Origin: Spirochaetia bacterium
Lineage (GTDB): Bacteria; Spirochaetota; Spirochaetia; DSM-16054; Sediminispirochaetaceae
Direction of reading: 5' to 3'
DNA length: 64,000 nt
Assembly (NCBI GenBank): GCA_034520965.1
Contig: JAXHMY010000001.1
Coordinates: 32,001 to 96,000 of the forward strand
Shown: piece by piece, positions 152 through 30,715 of the stretch
How positions within the stretch are numbered: position 1 is the first letter of the stretch
How the letters are laid out: every line of letters begins with the position of its first letter
Program-made: the position numbers and the translations under genes
The notes under the pieces: generated by a model
What the model saw: only the letters and a program-made list of their open reading frames with translations
Database searches by the model: none
What the model was told of the DNA's origin: nothing

Positions 152-277
152 CAGACTCACATCAATTTGCTGCAACGTATATGATCTATATGAAAATTCG
201 ACCGTTAATGACATTAAATTCTCATCGGGCGTATACCGGACCCTAGAGAGAAACACAGCGATAATCCAGCTGGACGT
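152..277 (+). repeat. att-like junction repeat, copy 1 (degenerate; TCACATC arm type)
   Basis: cagactcacatcaatttg..gtatatgatctatatga matches 30409-30460; the 3' end cagcgataatccagctggacgt matches 29938-29959 (tRNA T-arm/acceptor end). Confidence 0.75.
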
Positions 278-307
278 AAAAATGAGAAGAGGCCTTTAGG
301 CTGATTC

Positions 308-616
308 TCAGGGAAGGATTTTTTCTCCCTTCTGTACTACCATTTGTGAAAATCCGGAACGATCGTGTGCTGAATCTATGATTATTGGTTCTACCATGAG
401 TAAATCCAATGAGCGCCGCAACTTTTGTAATTGTTTTTCCAGCTGAAGGACATTCCGCGGTTCATGCTCCATTTCCAGGGCAATATCTATATCGCTAGTG
501 GATGTAGGATTCCCATATACCCACGAGCCGTATAGCCACGCCCTGGAGACCGGTAAGGAGTCTTGGGCTGCAGCAGCAAAATGTCTGGCTATCCGCAACA
601 CATCTGTTTTATCCAT
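308..616 (-). CDS. Minimal nucleotidyltransferase (MNT) antitoxin
   Basis: LYGS...SDID motif; start MDKT overlaps the end of the HEPN gene, as usual for this pair. Confidence 0.85.
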   Translation of the reverse strand: MDKTDVLRIARHFAAAAQDSLPVSRAWLYGSWVYGNPTSTSDIDIALEMEHEPRNVLQLEKQLQKLRRSLDLLMVEPIIIDSAHDRSGFSQMVVQKGEKILP

Positions 617-987
617 GATTGTACCTCTACCGTTTTTTCCAGTAATCTCCTGCAATAATCCTCTGTAAGTTCATCCATTATATACTGTTTGTCTCTAGGG
701 TAACGTGCTTCTATATTGAGAGGTTGCAACTCATCAAGAAGGTCGGCTAAATCTTCCGTAAGCGTATCTTTGAGACCTGAGGCTTCCGATAAACGCCACA
801 GATCGTGCGTGTAAGGAGCCTCTTTTGCTATTCTGGACACATAATAGGCTTTGAGAGCTTTTTCTACACTCTGGTGCGCCATGAATCCAACGTACAAATA
901 TCTTTTTGTGTCGAGCATCGCCTGAGCAGTTTCCAAGTCATAGTCGGAGAGTTCAAGCCAATACTGTTTCAATTCTCGAATATCCAT
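589..987 (-). CDS. HEPN domain protein (HEPN-MNT TA module)
   Basis: W..S.YDLETA, HQSVEKALKA, THDL and EARYP motifs of the HEPN family. Confidence 0.9.
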   Translation of the reverse strand: MDIRELKQYWLELSDYDLETAQAMLDTKRYLYVGFMAHQSVEKALKAYYVSRIAKEAPYTHDLWRLSEASGLKDTLTEDLADLLDELQPLNIEARYPRDKQYIMDELTEDYCRRLLEKTVEVQSWIKQMCCG

Positions 988-994
988 ACACCAA

Positions 995-1033
995 CATTAT
1001 AACAGCGAATCGGGTCGTTTGTCTCGATAGAAA
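995..1033 (-). promoter_or_regulatory. Repeated TA promoter module, copy 1
   Basis: Minus strand tcgagacaaacgacccgattcgcTGtTATAAT, 8 nt before the HEPN ATG; recurs at 8549, 20884, 29636 and 32821. Confidence 0.65.
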
Positions 1034-1084
1034 AACAATCCTTTGAGTCAGGTATCAAACCGGGAAAGAGCGGAGCAGAAATAC

Positions 1085-1329
1085 CTACGAAACCTTTTCC
1101 AAATCATGTAATACAAGTCCGGGATATTTTGCTATAAGCCTCAGAAGTGCTTTCGCAGGCCCATCAGGATTCCGTCTCCCCTATTCCCAGTTTTGGAGAG
1201 TGTTGATACTAATACCTATTCGTAAAGCAAATTGCTTCTGTGACAAACCCAGGTATTTTCGCAATGCTGCCAGATCACCGGTTTTCCACGCGCCCGATAT
1301 GAGTCGTAGACGCTGCTCTCGGGTAATAG
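1085..1329 (-). pseudogene. XRE/HTH antitoxin pseudogene (paralog of 32906-33196)
   Basis: Close nucleotide match to 32906-33150; 5'-truncated, with an in-frame TAG at 1181-1183 (WE*GRR). Confidence 0.85.
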
Positions 1330-1440
1330 GCAAAGCGCCAGCGATGCCCGTCTTCCCTGCGCTCGATCAAGCGGCCCAGCTTGTCGTAGTTGTAGGTGGT
1401 GGTGCGCCTGTCGACGTTGGTTACAGAAAAGGACGGGGCG
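1330..1440 (-). pseudogene. Orphan YD/RHS repeat fragment
   Basis: GC-rich patch translating TTTYNYDKLGRLIERREDGHRWRFAY, similar to EYGYDKLDRITERREAGYEWHYAY in the Rhs core. Confidence 0.7.
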
Positions 1441-1956
1441 CAATATAACAAATAAGACGAAAATTCCGTAAGTCTTAGAATCAACATCTTCTATCCCAGG
1501 AATTGTGATGATAATCTTATATTCTCTTTTCTTTTTTAATCTCAAAGAAAACAAATCCCAGTAAAGTGTATTGTCTTTATACCTTCCATATTGGAAGGGA
1601 AGATCATCGTATTCTGCAATCTGCTCTCCGGTCTGTATATCTTTAATAATGAAATTAAACTCTTTGGAAAATTCATCTGTAGTTGCAGAGGTAATTACTT
1701 TATCTTCATTATCGCTGTCTATTTCTGGAAAATGAAATGCAACTCTGTATCTGGAAGAAGACTTTCTGGGAATTAATGAATACTCATACTCCCGCTTATC
1801 GGTTTCAATTTCCATATCCTCTACTAAAGCAACAATCTCGTAATTGTACTCTTCCATCCATCTTTGCTCCACTTCCGATATTTCCTCAGTACCAAGACTC
1901 CACATAATTGTTATACTCCATAGAAAGTATATTGTCAAAATCATATTCTTTTTCAT
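1441..1956 (-). CDS. Putative Rhs immunity protein (signal peptide; natural stop apparently lost, reading runs on to 1216)
   Basis: AT-rich ORF directly after the Rhs C-terminus, with a GAGG RBS and MKKN plus a hydrophobic N-terminus; the 3' boundary is estimated from the GC shift. Confidence 0.55.
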
Positions 1957-1984
1957 TGTCAACCTCACGCTCCTATCAACGAGT

Positions 1985-4900
1985 TCATCTCAAAACTTCT
2001 TTATTCCAGCCAGGGGCCCAGCGTGATGGAGTAAAATCACTACCAGCTTCCCTTACCACACTACCAATTAGTGAATTACTATTACCACTTTCATCATTTA
2101 ACTCAGGTATTGCCTCGTATGGTACTGACCCATCATAAGAATCAGCGGCTTCCTCAAGATTTGACTTAAACTCTTCGGAGCTCATTCCCTCGGGGATAGG
2201 AAGTGTATCCCTAGTGGTTATCGATTCAGGTCTAGATTCCTCTGAACGTTCTAGAGTTCCCCATCCGAAGGATGACTTTTCACCTGTCCCTACTCTTCTA
2301 TTGGGAAATCCCTCTACAAGAACCCTTTCTCGATTTGTTTCAAAATTCTCCTCAACAATAGTCGTGTGGTGAGCGGCATTGAACGGATCAATTTTCGTAT
2401 AACCTACATAAAATTCATACTTATCTGTTTTGTTCTCACCGGATTCCGTCGCCATCAATCCCCACAGATCCACATAATTCACCGGGTCCCCGCCCACGTA
2501 GGCATACCAGTTCCAGCCGTCCTTGATCGGGTCCCGGCTCATGAATCGCCCGCTATCGGCATCATACCACCGCGCTCCATAGTAAGTCAGTCCCGTCGCT
2601 CCGTCTCGCTGCTTGCCGGTAAAGCCGACCGTGTTGTAGGGGCCAAAGACCCCGGCCATCGCCCATCCGTAGGCGTCCCAGGCGTAGCGGGCGATAGGCT
2701 CTCCGTGACGGTCGGTGATTGCCACCGGACTGCCGAGGCGGTCCGTGTGATAGTACATCAGCCCGCCCTTGGTATGCAGAAAGCCCTCCGGGCCCGGCTC
2801 CCTGCGGCCGTGGAAACCGTACATCTTCACCGCCACCAGGCGGCCGGCGGCGCGGAAATACTCCTTGTACAGCTCGAGCTCCCCCTGTGCGCTCTCATCG
2901 TACTCGGCCAGGATCTCCCGCTGGTTCCATATGTACACGCTGCGCTCTTCTGTAGGCGGAACCTCACCGTCGGCAGGCGTTTTCACCCGGCTCACTAAAC
3001 GCCCGAAGGCATCATACCCGTAGCTAACCGTTGAGCCATCCAAGAGCTCGGCCTCTACCAGTTCGCCTCGTCCGTTCCACTGGTACTCCGCGGTCCCCTC
3101 GGGAGCCGATTTCTCGGTCATCTCCCCGGTCCGGTTATACTCATAGCTCACCGCGCAGGCCTGTACCAATCGATTCAACCCGGAATACTGAAAGCTCTCG
3201 CTGACCTCATCTCGCCGCCTTTCGGTGATGTTCGCCGCCGCGTCATACTCCCAGCGTTCAGTAGACACGATATCGGGGAACACCGGCTGCTCATCCCAGG
3301 CCTCTCCGGACTCGGGCTTGTTCCACTGTCCCGGCGGCATCCCGCCGGGCTTTGTGGAGGCCGGCACTCCGGAGTAAATATCCTGGTAGCGCGCCGCGTG
3401 TCCCGGGGGAAACTGTCCGTCCTGCCATCCGCGGGTGTTCTCAATTAGCGTACGCGGGTAGCGCGCCTGCCGCAGCATTCCGGAGGGGTTATACGCATAG
3501 TGCCACTCGTACCCTGCCTCACGTCTCTCGGTAATCCTGTCCAGTTTATCATAGCCGTACTCCCGCGTGAATATCCGCCCCGCGGGGCTTTGCCAGCTGT
3601 AGCTGTCCATCGTCCCGGCGCTGTTCCAATTCCACTGCGCCGAGGTTCCGTTTCCGTACACCGCCGAGAGCCGGCGGCTCAGCCCGTCGTATGTGAAGTT
3701 CGCAGAAACATTCTCCGGGCCGTTGAAGGTGCTCACTCTTCCCATGTTATCACGCTCGTAGCGTAGACTCCGCCCCTCGGGGTCGATGATGCGGCTGATC
3801 TCACCCCGCTGGGTGTACTCATACTCCACTCGTTTTCCCGCCTCGACAAAATACACCGCCCGCACCCTGCCGGCCCGGTCATAGGAGAACCTTTCGCTCA
3901 TATCCGGGTCCCGGGCCTCTGTCATTCGCCCGGCCTCATCATAGAGAAACTCCACCCTCTCATCCGGGTACCGAACCTCTCTCACCAAGTCCGAGGCCTT
4001 ATACTCATAGGTGGTGCTGCCCCCGGCAATATCGGTCTTCTCTCTCAGCCGTCCCGCCCCGTCATAATCGTAATACGTTGTCCCCTCACTGTCAGTCATT
4101 TTAGTTATTAACCCGGATCCATCCCGTTCCCAGCTCACGGCCCGGCCCAAGGGATCATAGGCTTTCTTGATATACCCGCGTCTGTCATACTCGTACCTGA
4201 CAGACACATCCCCGGGCCCCCGCACTTTCTCAACGCGTCCGTTGGGGTCGTACTCATACCGGGTAATTCCATCCTCCGCGTCTATAATCTTTGTCAGTCG
4301 GCCCGCATCGTCATAACGGTAGGCGCTGCTTCTATCCCCCGGAGCGCGTCGCTCATGCAGCTGTCCGCTCTGGGTGTACTCCATTAAAATCTTCCCTCCC
4401 TCGGGGGGAATATACTCGACCGCGTCCCCGGCCTTATTGCGCGTCCACCTGTGTTTCGCCCCCGATGGGTCGATGTAGGTGGTAAGATACCCAAGCCGGT
4501 TGTACTCACGCTCATGCGAGCCACCGCGTGGGTCCCGGTAGAAAGTAAGCTGACCTAAAGCGTTGAACCGGTAGAAGTGCTCGGCCCCCGCCGCGTCAAT
4601 CACGGTCAGCTCATCATTGCTCGGGGCCCAATTATATATCACCGGATCCATACCGCTTCTCTCAACTCGTCTCTCACGACCCGCGGCGTCATAACTTATC
4701 TCGGTTATTCCCTTTCCAGGCACCTCTATGGAGCTCACATTTCCCCAGCTATCATAGCCGAGAACCGTCGCCTCACCGGCCCCGTTTATTATCGCTTGCG
4801 GTTACCCACTGGTTGTATCCCTCATACCGAGTCGTGCGGCCGGCCGGATCCTCCCGAAGAAGCAGGTTTCCGTGTGGATCGTAGGTCCATAACCAGGTTC

Positions 4901-6420
4901 CCCTTCCATCAAACATGCTCACCAGACGGTTATACTCGGCTTCCCATTCAAAGCGCTTCTCTACACCTAGCGGCTCAATCACTTTCGTGATGTTGCGCCG
5001 TTGGTCGTACTCATACCGCCACACACGACCGGTTGCGTCTCTTCGCATCGTATAATCATATGGGTTTTCAGGATCATTATATTCATAGCGCACGGGATCA
5101 CTTCCCGCGCGTCGTTCTTGCAGCATCCGGCCTTTCTCATCATATTCGTATGTCCATTCCGTCCCGCGCTCGTCAACAGCCGTTGTTACTCGGCGAGTAT
5201 CCGTAAAATTGTATGAGAAGCGATTGAACACTCTTCCATCGCCGAGTTCCACCCGGGTAACCCGCCCCTCGCTGTCGTGTTGAAACCGCACTTCTTTCCC
5301 AAGTGGATTTAAAAATGAGGAGATCCGCTCTTGCCCGTCGTAGAAATACTCACGGGTCTCACCCGCGGTTCCCACTACCCTTCGAAGGTTACCTGTCCCG
5401 TTATAGAAATATTGTACTCGCATATTCTCAGGGCCGCGCACCTGTGTCAGAAGGCCATTCTCATACACAAACCGATATTCCCGTCCTACCGCGTCCGTGA
5501 CTTTGTGTATGCTCCCGTCATCATTATAGGCGAAGGTCAACCCATTTCCGTTCGGATCCTTGATAGATAACAGGCGGCCTGCATCGGGACTTTGATCGGG
5601 AACCCCAGAACTGTGAGCCGCGGGAAGCACCCCCTCCTCTCGCCACTTCGCGTAGTATCCCTTGTACGTATATTCTACTCCCTCTTTTGTCCGCTCGGTA
5701 TACGTTCCATCAGCGTTCCGAATGAGGATGTTAGTGTTCCAATTCTGAGGCCGTGATGAATTTCGCTGAGGTCTTTGTCTATGAAGGGGTCTCCAGTCAT
5801 GGTCTCGCAACCGCTGTGGCTTCTGTGATATCAACGCTCTCATACACCCTGGGAAAAGCGGTCTGGTTTCGAACCATCATTGAGAAGTCCCAGTTCAGTA
5901 CTAATCGCCGCTCATATGAATGCCACCATTTCTTTCCTAAAGCCATGCCGGCGGCAAACGGGGTCGATATCGTTCGCTGCGAGTTGAAAATCTACTCCTG
6001 GCGAGGGAATACTCGGATCAGTGTACTTCAATACATACTCCCCTGTTTACGGGATTTTATTGGCATCATGCTTTGTCTCTACCACGCCCTCCGGCAAGCC
6101 GGAAAGACCAGTCACACTGTTGGTGAGGAGGTTGCCGCTGCCACTGGGCAGAGCTTTCTCAATTCCTCTGGGGTAGGTTGTTCCTCTTCCTCATCGTTAT
6201 TGTCATCATCATCATCGTCACCACTTCCTTCATCTTCATCAGAATCATCACCAGTATCAGGGTTATTATAGTCAGGATCATCCCCGTCAGGGATACCATC
6301 ATGATCTTGGTCGGGTGGTGTATACCCCCATGAATATAGATTTGAATTGTTGGTAAAAAAGAAAATGATACAAAGAATTAAAAATAGTGTTCCAAAAGTA
6401 TTACGTTTTCTGCTTAACAT
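1985..6420 (-). CDS. rhs: Rhs/YD-repeat polymorphic toxin with signal peptide and DUF6531-like domain; several frameshifts (ORF pieces 6112-6420, 4773-5843, 1985-4738)
   Basis: Many YD repeats; core end YYGARWYD..GRF..DP..YAYVGGDPVNYVDLWGL; frameshifted TGEYVLKYTD..LGKKWWHSY at about 5900-6050; AT-rich C-terminal domain from about 2460 down to 1985. Confidence 0.9.
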
Positions 6421-6425
6421 TTTTT

Positions 6426-7754
6426 TCACTCCTCCCCGATTAAATACGGTGTAACTACAACCCATAGGTTGGTCGTTTTATCTTTTGTCCTCAGATTTGT
6501 AAACGCTCGTCCGAGCACCGGTATATCCCCTAAAAAGGGAATCTTGTCTTTGTACTCAATCTTCCGCCTTTCAATCAGTCCTCCAATTACGATTGATCGT
6601 CCGCTCCGCGCCCGAATGGTTGTCTCGACCTCTCGCGTGCTTGTCGTTGGGTACCCCTCGCTGGTTGTTCCGGTAATCGAGGTAACCTCGGTGTGAATCT
6701 CCGTGGTAAGCTCATCCCCCTCTCCGCAGCGGGGAGTGATGGACAAGGAAATACCGGCAACGATATCCTGTTTCACCTTGTAGGTTTGGTCCCCGCTCGT
6801 CTCTCGAATGAACACCCAGGGAAAACGCTCTTCGGTCTTCACCTCCGCGGCACCCCATCCACGGTCGCCACCTTCAGCCTCGCTGGACCTGGGGCTGCCC
6901 CTCCTCACTGAGCATGCAGCGTCGACCTCGAATCTCGAGGGGCAACCTGTAAAATCGCTGGAACCAGACCCCAATCCCCTGATGGTGTCAGCCTCCTCTT
7001 TGAACACGGTTGAGACGGAGCTTCCCAGCGAAAGGCCTAAATGCTCGGCCGCGTTTACATTGATCTCCACAATACGCGCGGATATAAGCACCTGTCTTCC
7101 CGGGGTATCGACTCGATAAGCCTCGCCGCTTCTGAAAGATTCATGCTCGGCGGAGATAATAAGACGGTTCATACGCTCATCCACCTGGATCATGCGACTT
7201 CCGTAATCGATAAACCCGCATAATATCTCGGCCACCGCCTTCGCGTTGGCCCATTTGAGCTTTATGACCGCGAACCCCTCCTTGGGCAAAAGCTGTTCAT
7301 CTGTCTGCAAGACACTTTGCTCTGCTTCCTGCGAATCCCTAAATGTGATAACAAGCCGATCACCTTCAGGACTTATTGTGGCGGAAAAGAGATATTTCTC
7401 ATGTGCGTAAATCTCCACAACAATCGTTTTTGAATGAAAGGCGCGGACTGTTTCTCTGCGCACTAAAATATCTTTCACATACTCGCGTTCGGCGATCGAT
7501 GGCAGAAACATTCTAAGGTGGTTGAACTTGGCGCGCGGAAAACGAAGCTGCAGAATCGATTCGCTATAATGCCAGTCGGAGGTAAAATTAAAGAGATTCG
7601 TCCCGTCGATAATGACTTGGGGACCTGAAAAATGTATTTTCCTCAGATAGGTGTCGGGACCATTCTCTTGTATTTGAGCACCAAGAACGGCGGGAAAAAA
7701 TAAAAGCAACAGCACTACAGCCACTTGAACAAAGCCCGGCTTTCGCGCTGCCAT
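6426..7754 (-). CDS. Secretin (GspD/PilQ-like), with an apparent compensated internal frameshift
   Basis: C-terminal GISLSITPR..IVIGGLI..KIPFLGDIPVLG..F..VVVTPY; Secretin_N-like segment; KVATVDGVP reads in an alternate frame near 6850-6880. Confidence 0.85.
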   Translation of the reverse strand: MAARKPGFVQVAVVLLLLFFPAVLGAQIQENGPDTYLRKIHFSGPQVIIDGTNLFNFTSDWHYSESILQLRFPRAKFNHLRMFLPSIAEREYVKDILVRRETVRAFHSKTIVVEIYAHEKYLFSATISPEGDRLVITFRDSQEAEQSVLQTDEQLLPKEGFAVIKLKWANAKAVAEILCGFIDYGSRMIQVDERMNRLIISAEHESFRSGEAYRVDTPGRQVLISARIVEINVNAAEHLGLSLGSSVSTVFKEEADTIRGLGSGSSDFTGCPSRFEVDAACSVRRGSPRSSEAEGGDRGWGAAEVKTEERFPWVFIRETSGDQTYKVKQDIVAGISLSITPRCGEGDELTTEIHTEVTSITGTTSEGYPTTSTREVETTIRARSGRSIVIGGLIERRKIEYKDKIPFLGDIPVLGRAFTNLRTKDKTTNLWVVVTPYLIGEE

Positions 7755-8108
7755 GGGAAAAGAGGTTAAGAGTGACCGATAGCGCCAAATAGAAGAAAAA
7801 CACCACTCTGTTGAATATGGTTTAAATACACATTTTATAAAAAGCAAACCATAGTAGGATACAAGCGGTTTTGTGTCCCGTCAAGCTTTTTTTTTTCGAG
7901 ACAGACAGGGAGCGAGACAGACAGGGAGCACTGAATATTTCAGCTATTCAGATAGCGAGGATTGAAAAAAATACCTATACTGCTCCCAAAATTCTGGATA
8001 ATCACAAAGGAGATTGTTACCGTATTATTTGAGAAAATATTGCAAAACTATCTTTTCTATTGGGACTACGGGCTCATTAGAAAGAACAATCTCTTTGTTC
8101 TGAATAAA

Positions 8109-8267
8109 AAGTTACAACAAAGTTACAACACTTTGTCGCAAGGTATATGATTTATATGAAGAAATGACCCTTTTGGTATCTCAAAATTCTGTGCGTCCCA
8201 AATATGTCTAATATAGATGAAGAGGCGGCCTTCTAAGCCGTAGGTCGAAGGTTCGAATCCTCCTGGA
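8109..8267 (+). repeat. att-like junction repeat, copy 2 (GTTACA arm type) containing a tRNA-Arg(UCU) 3' half at 8225-8267
   Basis: aagttacaaca twice, gtatatgatttatatga, then gcggc-cttctaa-gccgt aggtc gaagg-ttcgaat-cctcc tgga; no D-arm or 5' acceptor strand. Confidence 0.85.
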
Positions 8268-8273
8268 TAAAAG

Positions 8274-8531
8274 TTACGCCGCATAATGAAGCACTTCTAC
8301 TTCAACCTTTCTCTTTACCGCCTCTTCAGCAAGTGCATAGATTCGAGGAATTGCTTCGCGCTTTATATCTTCCAACCGGTCCTCAAGAATGAGTGCGACA
8401 GCCTCTCGTAAACTCTCTTTTGCCTCTTCTATCGTTTCACCCTGCCCATTTGCTCCCGGCACCTCCGGACAAATTGCCCAATATCCACCTTCCTGTGCTT
8501 TTTCAATGATTGCCGTCAGCTCTCCCTTCAT
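8274..8531 (-). CDS. hicB: HicB-family antitoxin, probably chimeric at the C-terminus; no hicA
   Basis: GGYWAICPEVPGANGQGETIEEA motif; the DNA encoding its tail (..KRKVEVEVLHYAA) also occurs at 21149-21197 and 30582-30612. Confidence 0.8.
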   Translation of the reverse strand: MKGELTAIIEKAQEGGYWAICPEVPGANGQGETIEEAKESLREAVALILEDRLEDIKREAIPRIYALAEEAVKRKVEVEVLHYAA

Positions 8532-8629: not shown

Positions 8630-8670
8630 CAGTCTCATCAAATTCACATCAATTTGTCGCAAAGTATATG
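8630..8670 (+). repeat. att-like junction repeat, copy 3 (arm only; tRNA part absent)
   Basis: cagtctcatcaaattcacatcaatttgtcgcaaagtatatg matches the copies at 152 and 30409. Confidence 0.7.
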
Positions 8671-8773
8671 TTATAATTGTTGAATTGTCCTTCTATTCCA
8701 CTTTCCACTTCTCAACTGCGGAAAATGGGCTTCAAGAAGTTTTGCGTTGAATATGAAATCCTCGTAGGGGCTC

Positions 8774-9199
8774 CTATTTGGGGGGCTGATCGGTATTGGG
8801 CAGGAGCTCGTGCATTCTCTCTATCATCCATCGGATGTAGTGTTTTACTCCTGTCGATTTTTCTGCGGGCATTACCTCATCCACTACATCATAGAATAGT
8901 TCGAATCGATTGAGTATAAACACAGGATTCACATTATCATGGGGCAAGCGTTTTAAGGCCCAGCTTAGTTGATCTTCGAGAATGCTCAGTTCCCCCACGG
9001 CCATGGCGGCATCCAGCATTTTAAAGGTAAAATCAAATCCCTCGGCAATGATCTGCCGTGCATTCTTCCCGTGATGCCGGATTTCTTCTTCCCGGAGCAA
9101 AGACCGTTCAACAGCCAATGTAATGATTTCCGCTTTCATCTCACGAAACACTTTCAGATCTTCCGGATCTATTTCTACCTCATGGCTTGATTCGTCCAT
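8774..9199 (-). CDS. Hypothetical all-helical protein, possibly globin-like, associated with the B12-binding gene
   Basis: Intact 141-aa ORF with RBS, co-oriented with and 13 nt downstream of the B12 gene; the fold is an inference. Confidence 0.6.
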   Translation of the reverse strand: MDESSHEVEIDPEDLKVFREMKAEIITLAVERSLLREEEIRHHGKNARQIIAEGFDFTFKMLDAAMAVGELSILEDQLSWALKRLPHDNVNPVFILNRFELFYDVVDEVMPAEKSTGVKHYIRWMIERMHELLPNTDQPPK

Positions 9200-9211
9200 T
9201 CGACTCTCCTT

Positions 9212-20921: not shown

Positions 20922-20962
20922 AGCCTGATTGCCACTCACAATAGCAAATACTCGTCCTTCCC

Positions 20963-22092: not shown

Positions 22093-22825
22093 TCTTTCTC
22101 ACTTTTTCCTGCTCCTTTTCATGGGATCAATTGGTGCGGTGGCCATCATGCCCTATGCGATGGCGATGCAGAGCACCGTGGAGTTTACTCCCGCCTTGAT
22201 TCTTATCTCGATTCTGCAGGGGATAATTCTCTCGGCAATCGCCATCTTTGTCGGTATGCTCGCTTCCCGCTCCCTGGGCCTTAGCATCTGGTCAGAACCG
22301 AATCGCTTTCCTGCAGCCATCCTTCTCGGTGTCTGTGCGGGAGTGCTGGTGCTGCTGCTGGAACTCTTTATCTTTCTTCCCAATCTTCCGGAGGCCCTTA
22401 CTGCTGTGGGGAGAACGGGACATATCGCTCCATGGAAGGGTCTGCTGGCTGGGTTCTACGGCGGAATCAACGAAGAGCTGATGATGCGATTCTTCATGCT
22501 CTCGGGACTCCTCTGGATTGTCACCCGGTTCTGGCACAGCCCGGAGGGAGGTGCGGTGACCGCCGCATTCTGGATCATCAATATTTTTATCGGGACCGTC
22601 TTTGGACTGGGGCACCTGCCGGCAATAAAGGCTGTAACGGATGTTACCCCCTTCCTCATAATCCGATCCATAGTCTTGAACCTGGGCCCGGGAGTGGTTT
22701 TCGGTTGGATTTTCTGGAAGTGGGGACTCAGTGCCGCCATGGTAAGCCACTTTTCGGCGGACATGGTGCTGCATGTGATCAATCCCTGGCTTACCAGGGT
22801 GCTTGGTCTGGGGGGTGGTGCTTAA
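22076..22825 (+). CDS. CPBP (CAAX/Abi) intramembrane metalloprotease
   Basis: EELMMR, FGLGH and HxxxD motifs; multiple TM helices. Confidence 0.88.
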   Translation: MTLNLNLSHFFLLLFMGSIGAVAIMPYAMAMQSTVEFTPALILISILQGIILSAIAIFVGMLASRSLGLSIWSEPNRFPAAILLGVCAGVLVLLLELFIFLPNLPEALTAVGRTGHIAPWKGLLAGFYGGINEELMMRFFMLSGLLWIVTRFWHSPEGGAVTAAFWIINIFIGTVFGLGHLPAIKAVTDVTPFLIIRSIVLNLGPGVVFGWIFWKWGLSAAMVSHFSADMVLHVINPWLTRVLGLGGGA

Positions 22826-22933
22826 TATTCCCAGGGAGATGGATACAGTCCCTTCGAGCAGGATGAAAAGATTCTGCTCAAAGGGACTCGTGAATCAAGC
22901 AGGAAATCAAGGATTTTCAATTTCCGAATGCCT

Positions 22934-23340
22934 TTAACGCCAAAACTTTCCAGTATCATAACATCGCCAATACTGTTTCGTGCGACCACATCTTTCAAAA
23001 AAACCGTGTGGTATACTCGTATTGCCGATTGAACGGTTTTGTTGAAAGTAGAAGAAGGATACACCGTAGCAGATAACTGCACAGGCTAATGCATAGTAAA
23101 GAATTGGTTCCGGGATGAGTATGGGAATATTCTCTGAAGCTCCGGTAAAGTACATCACAATTCGAATAACAGCCGTAGCAACAGACATTACCAATACACC
23201 CAGGAACATAATAAAGCTATAGTTCCCGTCTAACAGTATCGCTTCGGAATTTGAATAATAATGAGTAAACCAGGCAATTACTGCCATAAAGATATTAGCC
23301 GCAGCTCCAATTAATAAAGCGCGATTTTCCCTGTTATTTC
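22934..23340 (-). pseudogene. Cation-efflux (CDF) transporter fragment, joined to a possible AAA-ATPase fragment
   Basis: SNSEAILLDGNYS CDF N-terminal motif; VYHTVFLKDVVARN reads in an overlapping frame. Confidence 0.5.
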
Positions 23341-23487
23341 ACATGTATGATCTCTCCTGTTAAGATGGCAAGTCGAACTATTCTGCTGCAGATTAGTCTA
23401 ACCGGCCTGATTTTTTAGAAACTTTTTAGTTTTGGTATTATTGCTTACCATCCTGATCTCCTTATTTTAACAGCCGACCCTGCCGGA

Positions 23488-24252
23488 TCAAAACCGCATC
23501 TCCGCCAGCCAGGAAGTCAGCTCTTCCTCGCGGTTCTTGAGCTTGTCGCTGGCTTCATTGTATTCCCCGGGCAGATATTCCCCCGCAATCCTGCCGTCCA
23601 GGATAAAGAGCACCCGCCCTGCTCTTGCGGCCACTTTGACATCGTGGGTCACCAGCAGGATGGTTACGCCGCTACGGTGGATCTGGGCCAGGAGGTCCAT
23701 AATCTCGTTGGCGGAGGTGGAGTTCAATGCGCCCGTCGGCTCGTCGCCGAAGATGATGTTCGGGTCGCCCATCAGGGCCCGGCAGATGCCCACCCGCTGG
23801 AGCTGCCCGCCCGAGGCCTGGATGATGGAACGCTCCTCCAGCCCGGCGATGCCGGTTTTTTCCATCAGCGTCCTGGCTTTGGCGACCAGCTGAGCGCCAT
23901 TCTTGCGGCCGTCGCGCATGGAGGGCAAAATGATGTTGTCGAGAATATTCAGGTTTTTGAGCAGCGTCGGCTGCTGGAATACAAAGCCCATATTCCTGCG
24001 GCGCAGGTCGGCCAGTTGATTTTCTTTTAGCACCGACAAATCGGTGCCGTCAAAGGTGACGGTTCCGCTGTCGATGCTGTCCATGCCGCTCAAGGCATAC
24101 AGCAGCGTTGATTTCCCCGAACCCGAAGGACCCATCACAGCGACAAATTCGCCCTGGTGAATCTCTACCGAGATACTGTCGAGGACTTTCTGCTTTTCCG
24201 CGGCCAGACCGAAAGACTTGGTAATTTTTTTGCTGCTAATGAGCTCTTGCAT
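23488..24252 (-). CDS. ABC transporter ATP-binding protein (LolD/MacB type)
   Basis: GPSGSGKS, SGGQ, DEPTGAL and VTHD motifs. Confidence 0.93.
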   Translation of the reverse strand: MQELISSKKITKSFGLAAEKQKVLDSISVEIHQGEFVAVMGPSGSGKSTLLYALSGMDSIDSGTVTFDGTDLSVLKENQLADLRRRNMGFVFQQPTLLKNLNILDNIILPSMRDGRKNGAQLVAKARTLMEKTGIAGLEERSIIQASGGQLQRVGICRALMGDPNIIFGDEPTGALNSTSANEIMDLLAQIHRSGVTILLVTHDVKVAARAGRVLFILDGRIAGEYLPGEYNEASDKLKNREEELTSWLAEMRF

Positions 24253-24255
24253 CCT

Positions 24256-26574
24256 TTACTCCTTGATATTGTCAGAAATGGTAATGTACCCCGCATCCAG
24301 GGTCCCGAAGATTGTTGCGGCCAGGGCCGCCCCTGCCATCAGCAGCGGGCTGAGCAGGCAGGCAAAGCCCGAGTTGACGATGAATGTAAAGGAGGCCGCC
24401 CCAAAGGAGCCAATCACCATCCCCGCAAGGACCTCACCTATAGTATTAGCCAGCACCGTGCCAAGCAGGATGCCAATGATCAGAACGAAAACCGAACGAG
24501 CCACATACTGCGCCTTGATGTCCCTGTTCGTAAAACCGAAGGCCTTCATCACCGCAATCGCATATCTGTCTTTGGCGACCAGCATACGCATGAACAACAG
24601 GGTGATCAGTGCGGTAAGGATCAGCGCAACGGCAACGGCCGCAGAAGCTGCCTTTCCGATGGCGTCGATGGTCCCGCCAAAGGTCTGGCGGACAAATTCA
24701 TCAATGTCCGAGACCTTGGCAAAAGCGAACCTGCCCGAATACCTGGCAGTTGTTTCAACCACCTGCGCCGGATCTGCAAGCCCGGCGGTGATAATGCTCC
24801 ACATGATATCTGCCGAGTCGCCTGCGAACACTGCTTTGGCGGATTTGCCGCCGTGGGTCACATCGGAATAGGTGCCGCAGACCGTGAGCATTCTCTTACG
24901 CCCATCAATAATCAGGGTGATGACATCCCCCACCCTTGTGTCCATTTCCCTGGCGTTCATCATCGAAAGGGCGATTTCGCTCTCCGCCGCTGGGGCACGT
25001 CCCTTAATATAGGTTAGGGGAAAGACCGAATGGTCGCCCAGTTCAACCTTGAGATTTTCCTCCGAGCCGTCAGCCAGTTGCAGGCGGAACGTTTTTGTGG
25101 TCAGCACGACAAACCTGGAGATGGAAGCATCATCCGCCATCGCCGCGGCTATCTCCGCTGTTTTTTCGGCAATGCGGTCGGTCTGCTGGATGTCAACTCG
25201 CAGGTCGCTCTTCCCGACACCCATGTAGGTGATGAAGCTTTTTGAGGCGATGGTGTTGTGCAAATTCTGCGGGACGATGATGATGAACGTAGCCAGCGTC
25301 AGCACCGCCAGCATGGTGGCGTACAGACTTTTTCGTGCAAGCACATCTTTGACGCCAAGGAAGACATTCGTGCCGAGCAGTCTGTTCACACTCAGGCGAA
25401 AGCGCCGCCCCCCTCCCGATTTTTCCTGTGAAATCCCGAACCGGACTGCTTCCGCCGGAGATATTTTGCGAAACCGTCCCAGTACACCGTTCACATAGAA
25501 GCTGATTGTCAGAAACACCAGCAAGACGCTGATAATCCCCAACAGCGGAGCCAGGGCGGTGTTGGAGCTTTCGCCCATGTAGAGCCGTATATTGGCAAGC
25601 AGGGCGTCCCGGAAAAGAAAAGATAGCCCATAGCCCAGCAGGCTGCCCACCGCTGCGATGGCAACATATCTGGTCAAATAGATTTTTTTGATGTCCGAAA
25701 CGCGAAGGCCGATGGCTTTCATTACGCCGATTTCACGGTAGTCGTCTTCAATTTTTGCCAGCAGGGTGAAGCGGATACACAGGAAGGCAATGGCAAGCAC
25801 CAGGGCGCTGACCAGGAGAATAACCGCTATCATCAGCCCGTCGGAGATGGCATTCATCATTCTGAACAGCGGATAGGTGATGGTCGGACCGTTGGCTTCG
25901 AGCCCCGCGGCGCTGTAGGCTGTCCCGAAGGCACTCAGCCTGTCCAGGTCATGCAGCCGGAACTGGATCAGGTATTCCACCCTGCCGGACTGCCTGAGGG
26001 CGGCAAAGTCCTTGTGACTGACCAGAAAGCGCTTGGAGGAGGCGAGCATGGGCTGCATCTGCGAATCCCGGAGAGGTCCTGCAATGGTGAGGATCTTCCC
26101 TGCTACCGTCACGGTGTCGCCGACTCCGGCGGTGCCATCCTGCAAGTAGACGATGGGAAGATAGATTTCCCCATCTGCGACCGTGATACGGTTACCATCG
26201 AGGTCCATCAGGAAATCGAATTTTTCACTCTGAACCACCAGCCCGTTATCCTGGATACTGCCTGCCAGGGAGCCGTCGGCAAATTCAAACTGCGCGCCCT
26301 CCACGTTGAGAAATTCAATCACCTGGAAATCGGCCACATCCTCATTGTGGTCTGCAAAAGCCGCCAGCCGCACCAGGTCCACTTCGCCGGCGTGCATCTG
26401 CATGAAATGGGGCGTTTTTCCCTGGGTCATCATGGTATCAATCGCACCCCCCAGGTTGACCACCAGGATGGCCGCCAGGGCAACCAGCATGGCTGCCGCG
26501 GCAACAAACATCATCGTTACCAGGGTAATCGCCTTGCTCTTCAAAATATCGTTACGGAGCAGTCGATAATACAT
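24256..26574 (-). CDS. FtsX-like ABC transporter permease
   Basis: Two REIGVMKAIG-type repeats with TM clusters. Confidence 0.9.
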   Translation of the reverse strand: MYYRLLRNDILKSKAITLVTMMFVAAAAMLVALAAILVVNLGGAIDTMMTQGKTPHFMQMHAGEVDLVRLAAFADHNEDVADFQVIEFLNVEGAQFEFADGSLAGSIQDNGLVVQSEKFDFLMDLDGNRITVADGEIYLPIVYLQDGTAGVGDTVTVAGKILTIAGPLRDSQMQPMLASSKRFLVSHKDFAALRQSGRVEYLIQFRLHDLDRLSAFGTAYSAAGLEANGPTITYPLFRMMNAISDGLMIAVILLVSALVLAIAFLCIRFTLLAKIEDDYREIGVMKAIGLRVSDIKKIYLTRYVAIAAVGSLLGYGLSFLFRDALLANIRLYMGESSNTALAPLLGIISVLLVFLTISFYVNGVLGRFRKISPAEAVRFGISQEKSGGGRRFRLSVNRLLGTNVFLGVKDVLARKSLYATMLAVLTLATFIIIVPQNLHNTIASKSFITYMGVGKSDLRVDIQQTDRIAEKTAEIAAAMADDASISRFVVLTTKTFRLQLADGSEENLKVELGDHSVFPLTYIKGRAPAAESEIALSMMNAREMDTRVGDVITLIIDGRKRMLTVCGTYSDVTHGGKSAKAVFAGDSADIMWSIITAGLADPAQVVETTARYSGRFAFAKVSDIDEFVRQTFGGTIDAIGKAASAAVAVALILTALITLLFMRMLVAKDRYAIAVMKAFGFTNRDIKAQYVARSVFVLIIGILLGTVLANTIGEVLAGMVIGSFGAASFTFIVNSGFACLLSPLLMAGAALAATIFGTLDAGYITISDNIKE

Positions 26575-26577
26575 GGC

Positions 26578-26817
26578 TCACTCCCCGGTATCCGGTTCAG
26601 GATCTATCTGCTGGAACAGCGTCAGTTGCAGTCCCAGATCGCATATCCGTCTGAGAATGCCGTCCGATGCGGCCTGGTCAAGAATGGAGCCGCGCAGTAT
26701 GGTTTGGCCATCGGGGCTGTATTCTACATTAAAATCTTCAAACCAGATCAATGCATTCTGACCCAGGTGACCTTTTACACGGATTTCGTAATATTTGCCG
26801 GTTTCTTGTGTTTTCAT
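26578..26817 (-). CDS. Small conserved hypothetical protein
   Basis: YEIRVKGHL..DQAA..G.L..I.DLGL motif, often seen next to MalT-like regulators. Confidence 0.7.
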   Translation of the reverse strand: MKTQETGKYYEIRVKGHLGQNALIWFEDFNVEYSPDGQTILRGSILDQAASDGILRRICDLGLQLTLFQQIDPEPDTGE

Positions 26818-26927
26818 GGCATGAGTCTATGCCATGGGCAGTCATTATAGAAACACACCTTGGTGGGATTTTTAGAAAACATGGGGTAACACTTTAGTGT
26901 CAGGCGGCTTTGCGGGGTGCCGGGGAA

Positions 26928-29210
26928 TCAAATCAGGCCCAGTCTGCCTGCTTCCAAAATTGCCTGAGATCGGCGGATTACCCCCAGTTTGCCGTAGAGG
27001 TTATTGTTATGGCGTTTAACCGTGTTAAGAGCGATGAAGAGTTCATCGGCAATTTCCTGGTTCGATTTGCCTGCGCACATTAAACGCAACACATCGAGTT
27101 CGCGCTCACTTAACGGTTCGATTAATGGCTGGAACGACGGCTGCGCCGGCAAGGCTTTGCTGTTTAATAATTCCCGGTTCCGGGCAATTGCGTCATTCAG
27201 GAACCGGTTATTGATCGACAGGGCAATCTGTTCTGCTTTGCCCATCTCAGCATGCACCTGATCTGGTTTCCCCTGCAGGTGATGCAGACGCGCCGCAACA
27301 AGATAGCCCTGGGCCAGATAGTATGTGTGGCCGCTTTTTATGGCTGTTTCCAGGCCTTGATCGAGAAGTGTTTCTGCTTCTTCCCATGATTTTTTGGTGT
27401 ACAGAACATCCGCCAGGGCGAGTTTAATCAGACAAAAAGCAGGATAATTGGCATAAGCTGATTGTTCTGTCAGGGATAACTCGTGACGGCAGATCGCCTC
27501 GGCCTCTTCCATACGCCCTCTCGCAAGACAGATTCCTGCCCATTCCATCGTCGCGTGGGCGAGGGCCAAAATATTGCCACATCTGCGTGCGTGGGGACTG
27601 ACCCTGCTCAGGTAATCTGCTGCCCGATCCGGATCACCGGCCGCCACACAGGCATAGCCCAACTGTGAATAGCAGGCGGTGTAGCCCATATCGGCATACA
27701 AGGGACCGAGGGTTTCACCCAGCTCCGCGATTGCCGGCAAAAGTTGTTCAATCTCCCTGCTCGCCTCTGCAACATCTCCCCGATGACGCATGACAATGGC
27801 TTGCAACAAAACCACCTGATGCACAATTATGTTATACTCGGGATGATCCACCGGTAACTTCCCCTCTGTGACCATCTGTTCGAAGGCCTGCCTGATATCG
27901 TCGAGGTATAAAGCAATACGTTCATAATCACCTCGTATAAAGAGGGTCCAGCAATATGCCACCCCTAATGGCGGAGATTGACGAATTACATCGGCGGGTA
28001 TGGATTCGAGCCATTGCACCGCGGTGCCCACACGTCCTGTATGATAGACGCGCCGCCAGTTATCGGTCACAAGTCGGCTGACATACGTGTAATCGGGAAT
28101 AGCGAAGGCATGATACAGGGCATCTTCGGGATGATGATTATCCTGAAACCATTCCGCAGCGCGCCTGTGCAGAACCGGCACATCTTCGCCCCTGGTGCGT
28201 TTCAGATGGCTTTTAAGAAATTCCGCAAAAAGGTGATGATAGCGAAACCAGTAGTGCTCTTCATCCAGGGGTATCACAAAAAGATTGCGGCGGCGTAAAT
28301 CCTCCAGGACTGCCGCGCCCTTCGTTGACTCTGTTAGCGCATCGCACAAGGGTGGAGACATTCGCTGGAGTATGGAGGTTTCAAGCAGGAAATTCTGCAG
28401 TTCCTCCGGCTGGTGACACAGGACCTCTTCTACCAGATATTCCAGCACAAAATGCCGGCTGCCGGCGAAATCCTGAATAAACCCATGGGTGTCGGCAAGG
28501 CCCTGCATTGAAAGCGCGGCCAGTTTTAATCCGGCAATCCAGCCCTCAGTGCGTGTTTCGAGTGCCTTTACATCATCCTCCGTCAGCTCCAGGTTCATCA
28601 GATCATTCAGAAAGGACGAGGCGTCATCAAAATCGAACCGCAGATCAGAAACGCGCACTTCCGTCAGCTGCCCGCGCATCCGTAAACGGCCAAGCGGCAG
28701 AGGAGGGTCATTACGCGAAGCAATAACAATATGAAGGGATGGAGGAATATGCTCAAGCAGAAAGTTCATCCCTTCATGAATATCCGCATTGGAAAGCACA
28801 TGATAATCATCCAGCACGATAATAAGCCGTTGTTCACTTGCGGCCAGCTCATTAACCAGGACAGTGAGAAATAACTCGGTATCAAAATCCTGGGCCGACT
28901 CCGATAATTGCAGCACCGGCCGGCCCCACTGATTCGACACCTCCTGAAGGGCGCTTACAAAGTACCTCCAGAAACGAATCGGATTATTGTCGCGGTTGTC
29001 CAGGGAAAGCCAGGCCACCTGGTCCTGATGGGCTGTAATCCATTCGACAAGAAAAGTGGATTTGCCATACCCGGCGGGAGCGGAAACAAGGGTCAGGGCC
29101 TTTCCCGCCTTCAAACCTGCAGTCAATCGATCAAGAAGATGGGGACGATGAACGATATTGGCTGGAAGAGAAGGGATAAACAGTTTGGTCAGCAGGATAG
29201 AAGAGTCCAT
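26928..29210 (-). CDS. MalT/LuxR-family (LAL) transcriptional regulator
   Basis: APAGYGKS, VLDDYH, TEGW, FRYHHLF and a C-terminal LuxR HTH. Confidence 0.92.
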   Translation of the reverse strand: MDSSILLTKLFIPSLPANIVHRPHLLDRLTAGLKAGKALTLVSAPAGYGKSTFLVEWITAHQDQVAWLSLDNRDNNPIRFWRYFVSALQEVSNQWGRPVLQLSESAQDFDTELFLTVLVNELAASEQRLIIVLDDYHVLSNADIHEGMNFLLEHIPPSLHIVIASRNDPPLPLGRLRMRGQLTEVRVSDLRFDFDDASSFLNDLMNLELTEDDVKALETRTEGWIAGLKLAALSMQGLADTHGFIQDFAGSRHFVLEYLVEEVLCHQPEELQNFLLETSILQRMSPPLCDALTESTKGAAVLEDLRRRNLFVIPLDEEHYWFRYHHLFAEFLKSHLKRTRGEDVPVLHRRAAEWFQDNHHPEDALYHAFAIPDYTYVSRLVTDNWRRVYHTGRVGTAVQWLESIPADVIRQSPPLGVAYCWTLFIRGDYERIALYLDDIRQAFEQMVTEGKLPVDHPEYNIIVHQVVLLQAIVMRHRGDVAEASREIEQLLPAIAELGETLGPLYADMGYTACYSQLGYACVAAGDPDRAADYLSRVSPHARRCGNILALAHATMEWAGICLARGRMEEAEAICRHELSLTEQSAYANYPAFCLIKLALADVLYTKKSWEEAETLLDQGLETAIKSGHTYYLAQGYLVAARLHHLQGKPDQVHAEMGKAEQIALSINNRFLNDAIARNRELLNSKALPAQPSFQPLIEPLSERELDVLRLMCAGKSNQEIADELFIALNTVKRHNNNLYGKLGVIRRSQAILEAGRLGLI

Positions 29211-29279
29211 TTTAAATCCACCTTACCACAAAAAGGCTGGACGGGACAGATTTTTCTGGCTGGCAGTGTTTTTATTTAC

Positions 29280-29480
29280 AGGTACCTGCAGGAACTCTGC
29301 AGAGAACTCATTTTCTTGAGGATGACATCATTTTTCATGCAATTTCCTCTGAAGCAGCTGCAGTCTGATCCGGTTGATCTGAGGAGCAAGGTCAGTCTGG
29401 TAATCCATCATTTCAATAGCCTTATTGCCGGGGAACCGCTTCGGTAAAACCGGTATTCGGATTCATCCAGAGAAAATGAG
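29280..29480 (-). pseudogene. Possible MNT 3' end plus DUF86/HepT 5' end remnant
   Basis: Fragments MMDYQTDLAPQINRIR and an overlapping MKNDVILKKMSSL; recognised by eye only. Confidence 0.4.
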
Positions 29481-29618
29481 TGCAACCGCTTCTCGTAAGC
29501 TCTCTTTTGCCTCTTCAATCGTCTCTCCCTGACCGTTTGCACCGGGAACCTCCGGACAAATTGCCCAGAAACCGCCCTCCGGAGCTTTCTCAATAATTGC
29601 CGTGAGCTCACCCTTCAT
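29463..29618 (-). pseudogene. hicB: Truncated HicB (paralog of 8274-8531)
   Basis: MKGELTAIIEKAPEGGFWAICPEVPGANGQGETIEEAKESLREAVALI, after which similarity is lost. Confidence 0.8.
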
Positions 29619-29635
29619 ATTTCTTCCCCCACTAT

Positions 29636-29673
29636 CATTATAACAGTGAATTAGCTCGCTTGTCTCGATTGAA
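29636..29673 (-). promoter_or_regulatory. Repeated TA promoter module, copy 4
   Basis: cattataacagtgaattagctcgcttgtctcgattgaa. Confidence 0.65.
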
Positions 29674-29723
29674 AACATCATTACGACATAGCAGAAAGCA
29701 CTAACAGGCACTCACACTGCACC

Positions 29724-29959
29724 AAGTTACAACAAAGTTACACCACTTTGTCGAAAAGTATATGATCTATATGATAAATCATCCCTTTTCCTAACCCAAT
29801 TCTGCATTATACACGACTAATATGTCCAATATAATAAAAAAAGCCTTCGAAGCCGTAGGTCGTCCGTTCGAGTCGGCGAGCGGCAGCGAGGGAAGGCGAA
29901 ACAGCTGCGTACCGGAGGACCTAAGGTCCGAGGGACGCAGCGATAATCCTGCTGGACGT
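29724..29959 (+). repeat. att-like junction repeat, copy 5; tRNA-Arg 3' half with a cttcgaa loop and an insertion of about 75 nt in the T-loop
   Basis: aagttacaacaaagttacacc..gtatatgatctatatga..gccttcgaagccgtaggtcgtccgttcga[insert]atcctgctggacgt. Confidence 0.85.
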
Positions 29960-29988
29960 CATAACATCCTAAATGGTATATTAGACAT

Positions 29989-30131
29989 ATGCCTTCGGTA
30001 AAAGGGATATCGGGACCATATCGATTCTCTTAAGCACGAATCATGGATTTTCTCCTCACGAGCTTAACAAAATACGTAATTTAATTCGAAAAAACGAGAA
30101 GAAAATAGCGGAGGCTTGGCGTGAGCACTGA
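29989..30131 (+). pseudogene. DUF4160 toxin gene with an internal deletion
   Basis: MPSVKGISGPYRF is joined out of frame to NHGFSPHELNKIRNLI..EAWREH*; the central HVHV region is missing. Confidence 0.8.
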
Positions 30132-30387
30132 GAATAATGTAGAGGCAAGAATAAAAAAAGCACGTATCACTGAGGACGAAATTATCGCCCATCTTGTAGA
30201 TGGCCGCACCATAAGTGTGCCCCTCACTTGGTCGTGGAGACTATCAGAAGCTACCGAAACACAGAGAAACAACTATGAGCTGATCGGTGACGGATTAGGG
30301 ATTCATTGGCCGGATGTAGACGAGGATATAAGCGCACGGGGAATGTTAATGGGCACTCCTGCAAAGCCCCCAAAGCAGAAGGTATAA
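30121..30387 (+). CDS. DUF2442 antitoxin
   Basis: L.DGRTISVPL.W..RL..A...R..YELIGDG.GIHWPDVDEDIS. Confidence 0.9.
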   Translation: MSTENNVEARIKKARITEDEIIAHLVDGRTISVPLTWSWRLSEATETQRNNYELIGDGLGIHWPDVDEDISARGMLMGTPAKPPKQKV

Positions 30388-30408
30388 TTCCGCATTCTCA
30401 ATACGATC

Positions 30409-30573
30409 CAGACTCACATCGAGTTCACATCAATTTGTCAGGGCGTATATGAACTATATGAGGAATAACCTCTTTCCTAAACAAATTCTCTGTTATACAT
30501 GCCTAATATGTCTAATATAGTTAAAACATGGCCTTCTAAGCCGTAGGTCGCCCGTTCGAGTCAGGCTGGACGT
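30409..30573 (+). repeat. att-like junction repeat, copy 6, with tRNA-Arg(UCU) 3' half at 30528-30573
   Basis: tcacatc twice at 11-bp spacing, gtatatgaactatatga, then atggc-cttctaa-gccgt aggtc gcccg-ttcgagt-caggc tggacgt. Confidence 0.85.
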
Positions 30574-30715
30574 AGAAATTCCACGCCGCATAATGCAGCA
30601 CTTCCACTTCTAACAGCAATTCGCAAAAGGGAACCTGTGGAAAGCGTGATCTTTCCCGGTTTCGTGTGGGACTGCGGCAAGGCATAGAGCGCCGGGAAAA
30701 CCAGTCAACCGACGT

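Follow-up and report, generated by a model that had tools for sequence, protein, structure and literature searches.

A stack of tRNA-Arg-derived attachment junctions and toxin-antitoxin genes in a Spirochaetia genome

Integrase-less units stacked at one target are known from the cis-mobilizable elements (CIMEs) and microCIMEs of the Streptococcus ICESt3 family, for which the published accounts give sizes of 1.2-13 kb, gene-less units of 130-220 bp, and cis-mobilization with a helper (PMC7563491, PMC5704250). In Dehalococcoides, many direct repeats lie downstream of a single RNA gene, ssrA, with a conserved motif just upstream of each, and the account in PMC3146451 includes 15 islands that carry no integration module and were proposed to be cis-mobilizable. 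Toxin-antitoxin (TA) modules, for their part, can stabilize a composite island, as PMC8978831 reports. Here we describe a locus of comparable design in a Spirochaetia bacterium (assembly GCA_034520965.1, here G000; 3.35 Mb in 9 contigs, 86% complete). The window, that is the whole stretch of 64,000 nucleotides analysed (G000:C1:32001-96000), holds a series of repeats that each join a conserved arm to the 3' half of a tRNA-Arg gene. As in the CIMEs, integrase-less units are stacked at one target, sizes overlap (gene-less mini-units measure ~175-230 bp here) and mobilization in cis by a helper is proposed, here from the sequence alone; as in Dehalococcoides, the direct repeats follow one RNA gene and each is preceded by a conserved motif.

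The repeat is the right-hand attachment site (attR) of a spirochaete tyrosine-integrase family. The array probably represents a composite island, formed by tandem accretion at tRNA-Arg(UCU), followed by decay with enrichment of surviving TA modules and by co-excision with a helper.

The junction repeat and its cognate integrases

The repeat occurs six times on the same strand, at 152, 8109, 8630, 20963, 29724 and 30409, where a preliminary description of this DNA had placed it. An nhmmer model of the arm, built from its sequence, recovers the four copies that it contained (8109, 20963, 29724 and 30409) with E-values of 4e-35 to 5e-44, and the two outside it, 152 and 8630, with 2e-6 and 5e-6, respectively. 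The full repeat measures about 165 bp, of which the arm makes up about 120 bp. It consists, in order, of two 11-bp direct repeats, CTTTG, two copies of TATATGA, a variable spacer, AATATGTCnAATATA and the 3' half of tRNA-Arg(UCU), from the anticodon stem through the acceptor strand; the two motifs singled out earlier, GTATATGAnnTATATGA and AATATGTCnAATATA, are both present. The 11-bp repeats are of two types, A (GTTACAACA) and B (TTCACATCA).

No tRNA gene was found by ARAGORN within the window. A match to the Rfam tRNA model at 8198-8267 (32 bits) was discarded as a real tRNA: its acceptor stem and D-arm pair poorly, and it was taken as a core plus chance. The single tRNA-Arg(UCU) that ARAGORN finds in G000 lies on contig C8 (C8:30689-30764). 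It is intact, the displaced 3' fragments have the same orientation, and identity begins at the anticodon stem. Behind this tRNA stand a terminator-like hairpin, a pair of A-type repeats and then the tyrosine integrase gene int1 (PF00589). On C1, a seventh junction with an A-type arm and a perfect core is found at 29058, 2.9 kb left of the window; after its core come a similar hairpin, three B-type repeats and a second integrase gene, int2 (PF00589), 2.7 kb from the window. No PF00589 match was obtained within the window. Thus the 11-bp repeat that precedes each integrase is that of the arms, A with int1 and B with int2. The int2-bearing element (C1:29.2-32.1 kb) begins left of the window and comprises left-arm repeats, int2, remnants of hicB, of a helix-turn-helix (HTH) gene and of BrnT, and a B-type end arm at window 152, junction 1 being its right end. 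In short, the tRNA and the left-hand integrase that the preliminary description had advised looking for both exist, with arms to match, and its view of the copies, as att junctions that derive from a tRNA, belong to a tyrosine integrase and carry arm-type repeats, holds.

Both integrase genes are interrupted. int2, 93% identical to int1 over 585 nt, is internally deleted and carries an IS3-like insertion; int1, compared with a whole homologue (P0001, 385 aa, 93% identity), has one early stop and two late frameshifts. The breaks of int1 may be assembly errors, since two core genes near it on C8 are also frameshifted compared with genome G002. The catalytic positions R-K-H-R-W-Y are conserved across 95 homologues, 11 of which match PF24624 (Int_N) weakly, and the closest named homologues come from metagenome-assembled genomes (MAGs) of Spirochaetaceae. 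With the integrase as query, one genome contig and no viral contig matched.

Paired left-arm repeats follow only 2 of 25 cores or tRNAs, exactly the two with an integrase gene behind; they are absent within 420 nt (309 nt at one locus) after all 23 cores without one. Matching repeats at both ends are seen in the int2 element and in an element of genome G010, and would hold for the int1 element only if C8 joins C1. The G010 element sits at the same tRNA; its 11-bp repeat, which is a different one, stands at +106/+117 behind that tRNA and recurs at -124 from the attR core with a degenerate second copy alongside. Because this element has its own repeat at both ends, the repeats behave as element-specific arms, and the integrase presumably binds them as arm-type sites. 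The sequences show that elements of this integrase family are laid out as tRNA core, terminator, left-arm 11-bp repeats, int, cargo, right arm and tRNA 3' half; stacking of such elements leaves one arm-plus-core junction per unit.

Behind the attR of the G010 element, which spans 42 kb, lies the start of a second, degenerate integrase-like gene (L012:13756-15400) with its own 11-bp repeats, adjoining a probable transposase, a case of accretion at the same tRNA in another genus.

Toxin-antitoxin content and decay of the window

The features of the window are as follows (coordinates in the window, strand, description).

152-277, plus: junction 1, a B-type arm (TTCACATCA) that keeps its 5' part, with ~15 nt of tRNA acceptor strand, the remainder being deleted
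308-987, minus: TA pair of MNT (308-655) and HEPN (589-987), named by Pfam; the only junction-adjacent pair of the window with both frames whole
998-1030, minus: promoter-like motif, GAGACA..TATAAT in minus-strand reading, directed into the unit; a presumed promoter
1985-7847, minus: cargo of unit 2, Rhs-repeat genes and secretin
8109-8268, plus: junction 2, A-type arm (AAGTTACAACA twice, TATATGA twice, AATATGTCTAATATA); tRNA-Arg(UCU) 3' half at 8228-8268 with one T-stem mismatch
8274-8531, minus: hicB antitoxin gene that ends in a foreign C-terminal tail and lacks a hicA partner, sole gene of the 0.4-kb unit 3
8630-8695, plus: junction 3, a B-type arm reduced to its 5' half and lacking any tRNA sequence or core
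8774-20461, minus: cargo of unit 4, B12-binding protein, PAS/histidine kinases, KaiB, KaiC and a DnaJ domain
20760-20920, minus: 5' remnant of HEPN and promoter-like motif
20963-21138, plus: junction 4, an A-type arm whose core has a palindromic insert in place of anticodon loop and T-arm and keeps the acceptor strand with one change
21502-29210, no single strand given: cargo of unit 5, ArsR-type HTH, CAAX protease, ATP-binding cassette (ABC) transporter/FtsX, LuxR regulator with tetratricopeptide repeats
29412-29670, minus: hicB fused by deletion to a hicA remnant, and promoter-like motif
29724-29960, plus: junction 5, A-type arm, core at 29843-29876 with changed anticodon loop, palindromic insert, second acceptor-strand piece at 29945-29960
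29989-30387, plus: unit 6 (0.6 kb), DUF4160 with an internal deletion of ~88 nt, and whole DUF2442
30411-30573, plus: junction 6, B-type arm and tRNA-Arg(UCU) 3' half at 30531-30573, the core identical to the intact C8 tRNA at 44 of 45 nt
31915-33196, minus: distal armless TA cluster with ParE/ParD, a hicB-like gene and an HTH antitoxin, holding a third copy of the hicB-HTH module

Each of the six copies has a TA gene or remnant no more than 200 nt away (about 150 nt in the preliminary description), and genome-wide this is true of 8 of 13 copies compared with 9% of random island positions; the query set was drawn partly from these same genes, and the enrichment is therefore overstated and partly circular. 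The preliminary description spoke of TA-bearing cassettes; in three of the five segments between copies, 7.8-12.3 kb are taken up by ordinary cargo (Rhs, secretin, sensor kinases, KaiBC, ABC transporter). The shortest segment does hold the DUF4160/DUF2442 pair reported for it, but its DUF4160 is the deleted one, and the copies reported as best preserved do carry arm repeats, motifs and tRNA half, but their cores, the only scoreable ones in the window, are all mismatched in the T-stem (4/5 pairs kept in 8109, 3/5 in 29724, 4/5 in 30409). Most junction-adjacent toxins are broken, with hicA absent or fused, DUF4160 deleted and BrnT interrupted. The window part of the array is mostly decaying in G000, both in its cores and in most of its toxins.

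The promoter-like motif recurs at ~8550, 20887 and 29639. Within G000 it is confined to the C1 array, and it stands upstream of hicB, HEPN or, in genome G009, an OmpA gene.

The GC-rich palindromic inserts (21086-21125 and 29873-29945 in the window; also at loci L003, L004, L010 and L013) either break the T-arm of a core or make up gene-less mini-units of ~175-230 bp that end in a tRNA 3' piece. Those of damaged cores have 0-4 further matches in the genome and match no Rfam family. Directly after three cores, which end at 8268, 21138 and 30573, stands one and the same short gene tail (8274-8330, 21140-21196 and 30575-30612). It is not the normal end of HicB but a foreign gene tail, fused to hicB in one case; searches of the genome and of the loci turned up no whole gene that ends in it.

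In unit 4, a KaiC-KaiB pair lies between PAS sensor kinases (18169-19876), and a palindromic repeat of ~140 bp at 20573-20715, resembling miniature inverted-repeat transposable elements or repetitive extragenic palindromes, is dispersed in the genome (160 BLAST segments). Far from the array, at 58609-62803, large surface-protein genes contain tandem repeats of ~291 nt with Flg_new, Ig-like and Lcl_C domains.

Related arrays and their breakpoints

The repeat extends well beyond the window. G000 has 13 arm matches in four unidirectional clusters, all seven copies on C1 being on the plus strand. The arm model matches six of the nine other genomes of the genus and one of seven from other genera of the family, these seven arm-bearing relatives being MAGs that are 78-97% complete, as well as 2 of 150 genomes of the class besides G000, one of them in another family. 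Metagenome loci were located by a pattern scan, which contributed five contigs. Four types of tRNA core occur: Arg(UCU), Arg(CCU), Leu(GAG) and a second Leu type. In the relatives, arms close integrase-less units of 0.6-2.9 kb, mostly TA-only and often directly behind an intact tRNA, and no integrase of the family was found in these small units. Unit 6 of the window is also present in G002, G003 and L046/L047. The principal arrays read as follows; genes of G107 were named by tblastn with TA proteins of these arrays.

G002: tRNA, mini-unit, HicAB, HTH/BrnT, arm
G007: tRNA(CCU), MNT/HEPN, HicAB, arm, DUF4160/2442, partial arm
G001: HigBA unit
L046: tRNA, Big_2/DUF285 lipoprotein, arm, HicAB, arm, DUF4160/2442, arm
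G000, contig C9: OsmC/hemerythrin unit (twice), HicAB
G107: tRNA(CCU), then a stretch bearing DUF4160/2442 and an arm; DUF4160/2442 also between Leu(GAG) halves

On C9, a 4.9-kb block with a UCU-type junction and the OsmC/hemerythrin genes is present twice (24741-29623 and 268938-273817, 98.6% identical), in both a Leu-type and an Arg(CCU)-type array, with an insertion sequence at one end. After the last Leu-type junction of C9, the region 30300-37000 holds at least five armless TA pairs (MazEF, two PIN pairs, HicAB and HigBA).

Strains differ in their integrase-less units, and the breakpoints fall at the core or beside it (L045 versus L046, L047 versus L048, L013 versus L046), a comparison that the preliminary description had proposed. 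The lipoprotein unit has the same start (121 of 121 nt identical) in L046, where the intact tRNA precedes it, and in L045, where an arm does; in its place, G003 carries HicA after a gene-less mini-unit. L047 and L048 are 99.7% identical over 392 nt starting just before the core, and differ in the arm and upstream DNA. MNT/HEPN, in turn, lies behind the tRNA in G007 and behind a junction in G003. Nine intact tRNA-Arg(UCU) genes fall into three variants with fully paired T-stems (5, 3 and 1 genes), and all three recur in junction cores, as expected if integration replaces the 3' half of the tRNA.

Exchange also took place away from the core. Some arms that match completely or almost so over ~70 nt have upstream DNA that is unrelated (window 8109 versus L045; window 152 versus L049), that is, arms are exchanged at their 5' edge too. 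Conversely, near-identical TA genes come with different arms (HicB identical at 207 of 216 nt, arm spacer at 22 of 44), and the 4.9-kb block common to the two C9 arrays is not bounded by cores. Together, the core breakpoints and the exchange of arms, motifs and blocks away from the core indicate that both site-specific and homology-driven events shape the arrays.

Circles joined at the core, which the preliminary description had suggested seeking, did not appear in four public runs, a weak test because all four were used as contigs. Joints 29833-30530 and 29840-30530 were set aside as circles or skips, their letters matching the C9 and C1:29058 paralogues, and a joint 20962-29736 in run X6 is ambiguous (44-nt side).

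Origin of the array and its place among known systems

Anatomy, arm matching and core breakpoints are read from the DNA itself, and from them we infer the crossover position, the insertion order, an origin by deletion, TA-driven retention and co-excision. Each newcomer would enter the intact tRNA by a crossover in its anticodon-loop region and displace older units outward. These would lose their left arm and integrase gene through deletion, while recombination between shared arms and promoters would trim and reshuffle them, and TA modules at the unit ends may outlast other genes, leaving TA-only units of 0.4-1.6 kb. A right arm alone would suffice for a unit: a helper element at the head of the array could use its left end with whichever arm of the same type lies farther down, excise along with several units, take them into another host and afterwards excise by itself, which would leave integrase-less units directly behind an intact tRNA. 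Accretion, decay and a helper thus would account for the kept right arms, the lost left arms, the replaced tRNA halves and the integrase-less units next to tRNAs. As in CIMEs, the units have no integrase or transfer genes and stand in tandem at the target gene. The first, integrase-less unit of G002 aligns collinearly (75-81% identity) with the right-hand portion of the int2 element, the sole integrase-bearing counterpart in hand. The preliminary description had supposed that integrase-less cassettes were inserted one after another by an integrase acting in trans. Such an integrase is not needed, because int1 and int2 head the array, and the collinearity of this one TA unit with an integrase-bearing element points to decay rather than to insertion of free cassettes.

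Several observations weigh against this account. Published CIMEs retain both attL and attR and sit farthest from the target gene (as described in PMC7563491), and the units here keep core and right arm, lack left-arm repeats and abut the intact tRNA in G002, G007, G107, L046 and apparently G003. Collinearity with an integrase-bearing element concerns that one small unit. The C8-C1 join is compatible with the sign of the GC skew and with the matching arms, and the contigs are separate; UCU-type cores are also carried by C9. No close integrase was found in the seven arm-bearing relatives of the family, G002 and G003 having distant members of the integrase family elsewhere in their genomes, and no excisionase was found near int1 with the G010 query.

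A rather unlikely alternative is that the units are cassettes with a single site, excised between successive cores and re-inserted at the intact tRNA by an integrase of the family acting in trans. The tRNA would play the part of attI, arm plus core would be the cassette site, of which only the right arm would be needed, and transient, arm-matched integrases would move sub-kilobase, mostly TA units at tRNA-Arg and tRNA-Leu genes. This agrees with the one end site per unit, the missing left arm, the units that abut intact tRNAs and the differences in presence at the core. TA-only units occur in two families at three kinds of core, UCU, CCU and Leu(GAG), and their TA paralogues are unrelated (those of DUF2442 are 22-41% identical in local alignments), and in most units the TA genes abut core or terminator with no integrase scar. 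In paired units the motif columns of the arms are 83-95% identical while spacer columns are 31-57% identical, values that, because arms are exchanged, do not read as purifying selection on orthologous arms. However, excision of phage lambda uses both its P and P' arms (as described in PMC4880445), the contigs of the four runs (a weak test) gave no circle, the same TA type at high identity at two tRNAs was not found, the 4.9-kb block is not core-bounded, and window cores and toxins are damaged. Moreover, G000, G002 and L046 share the order HicAB - DUF4160/2442, a sign of inheritance.

It is improbable that the junctions are immobile relics, dead attR scars changed only by RecA-type or slippage deletions, where TA genes persist by addiction and no integrase acts. 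Full arms are kept in relatives that have no close integrase, and 13 of 16 scoreable junction cores have a fully paired T-stem, although some of these rows are one strain group and damaged cores escape the pattern. The interruption of both G000 integrases, which would suit relics, loses force if the breaks of int1 are assembly errors. Identical arm starts joined to unrelated upstream DNA and the same TA gene with different arms are also consistent with relics, as are the promoter-like motif that links hicB or HEPN to an HTH gene or to an arm, and the TA clusters that extend past the last arm. Finally, an assembly artefact or local segmental duplication can be dismissed as exceedingly improbable: core genes of G000 are frameshifted and arrays break contigs in relatives, but the spacers of the copies differ strongly, a public contig (run X2, possibly the source sample) spans 29668-30038 with zero differences, and the unit of junction and DUF genes recurs in other genomes and metagenome contigs.

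The locus offers a natural and compact test case for whether a right arm and half a tRNA are enough for a tyrosine integrase to move DNA, the whole cognate enzyme (P0001), matched arm types and substrates of 0.6-0.9 kb all being identified, and it suggests a route by which TA genes pile up at tRNA genes outside integrons. Units of this kind fall out of island surveys filtered by integrase and length. Islander, as described in PMC4383910, discards candidates that lack an integrase or are shorter than 2 kb, and standard island finders would therefore miss such cassettes. If the single-site cassettes were real, they would be a double-stranded, phage-integrase analogue of the integron, a second and mechanistically independent gene-cassette system alongside real integrons in the same genomes.

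Integrons and CALINs (clusters of attC sites lacking integron integrases) resemble this array in having one site per unit at its distal end, a unidirectional order, entry at a primary site, TA-rich content and units with their own promoter-like motif. They differ in using IntI and attC hairpins, whereas the integrase here is of another kind than IntI, and its sites derive from tRNAs and carry arm repeats; membership among the integrons was rejected on both counts. P0001 scores 44 bits against the IntI model TIGR02249, for which the cut-off is 265. The two junctions folded form no long stem, at about -0.09 to -0.10 kcal/mol per nt, and one attC-type repeat of G000 gives -0.23 kcal/mol per nt with an end-to-end stem. 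The sites are double-stranded and of attR type, and the attC role first proposed for them does not apply to their mechanism. G000 also has two attC-type arrays unlike these junctions, at C1:843000-865500 and C3:60000-81000. That on C3 adjoins an IntI-like gene split over two frames (C3:80.0-81.0 kb, 185+174 bits), which is unlinked to the junctions; that on C1 is TA-rich and neighbours a tyrosine recombinase of 365 aa, which reaches 89 bits against the IntI model in its best stretch.

The stack is an unusual form of the known stacked genomic islands and not a true integron. Literature searches, whose coverage left out most subscription journals, found no published description of such arrays, and closer examples could stand in the supplements of the papers compared. 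With the subsite A type of Islander it shares a tRNA with a displaced anticodon-arm 3' fragment and an adjacent tyrosine integrase, both copies of which are interrupted here. The tycheposon islands of Prochlorococcus are likewise seeded at tRNAs, with newcomers displacing older elements, and retain partial tRNAs and integrase fragments; the descriptions consulted (bioRxiv 10.1101/2020.12.28.424599) mention neither a conserved arm nor TA-only units, and the replication and packaging modules that they give to tycheposons were not seen here. The Dehalococcoides islands, as described in PMC3146451, use a serine recombinase, a site in the T-loop of tmRNA and a 15-bp motif, and carry rdhA, whereas here a tyrosine integrase, a site in the anticodon loop, an arm of ~120 bp and TA cargo are found. 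Unlike CIMEs, the units described here lack left-arm repeats, are often TA-only, sub-kilobase and next to the intact tRNA, no conjugation module was identified with them, and one arm architecture serves four tRNA cores. Compared with known stacked islands, it is thus the missing left arm, the TA-only cargo and the tRNA-proximal position that make this array unusual.

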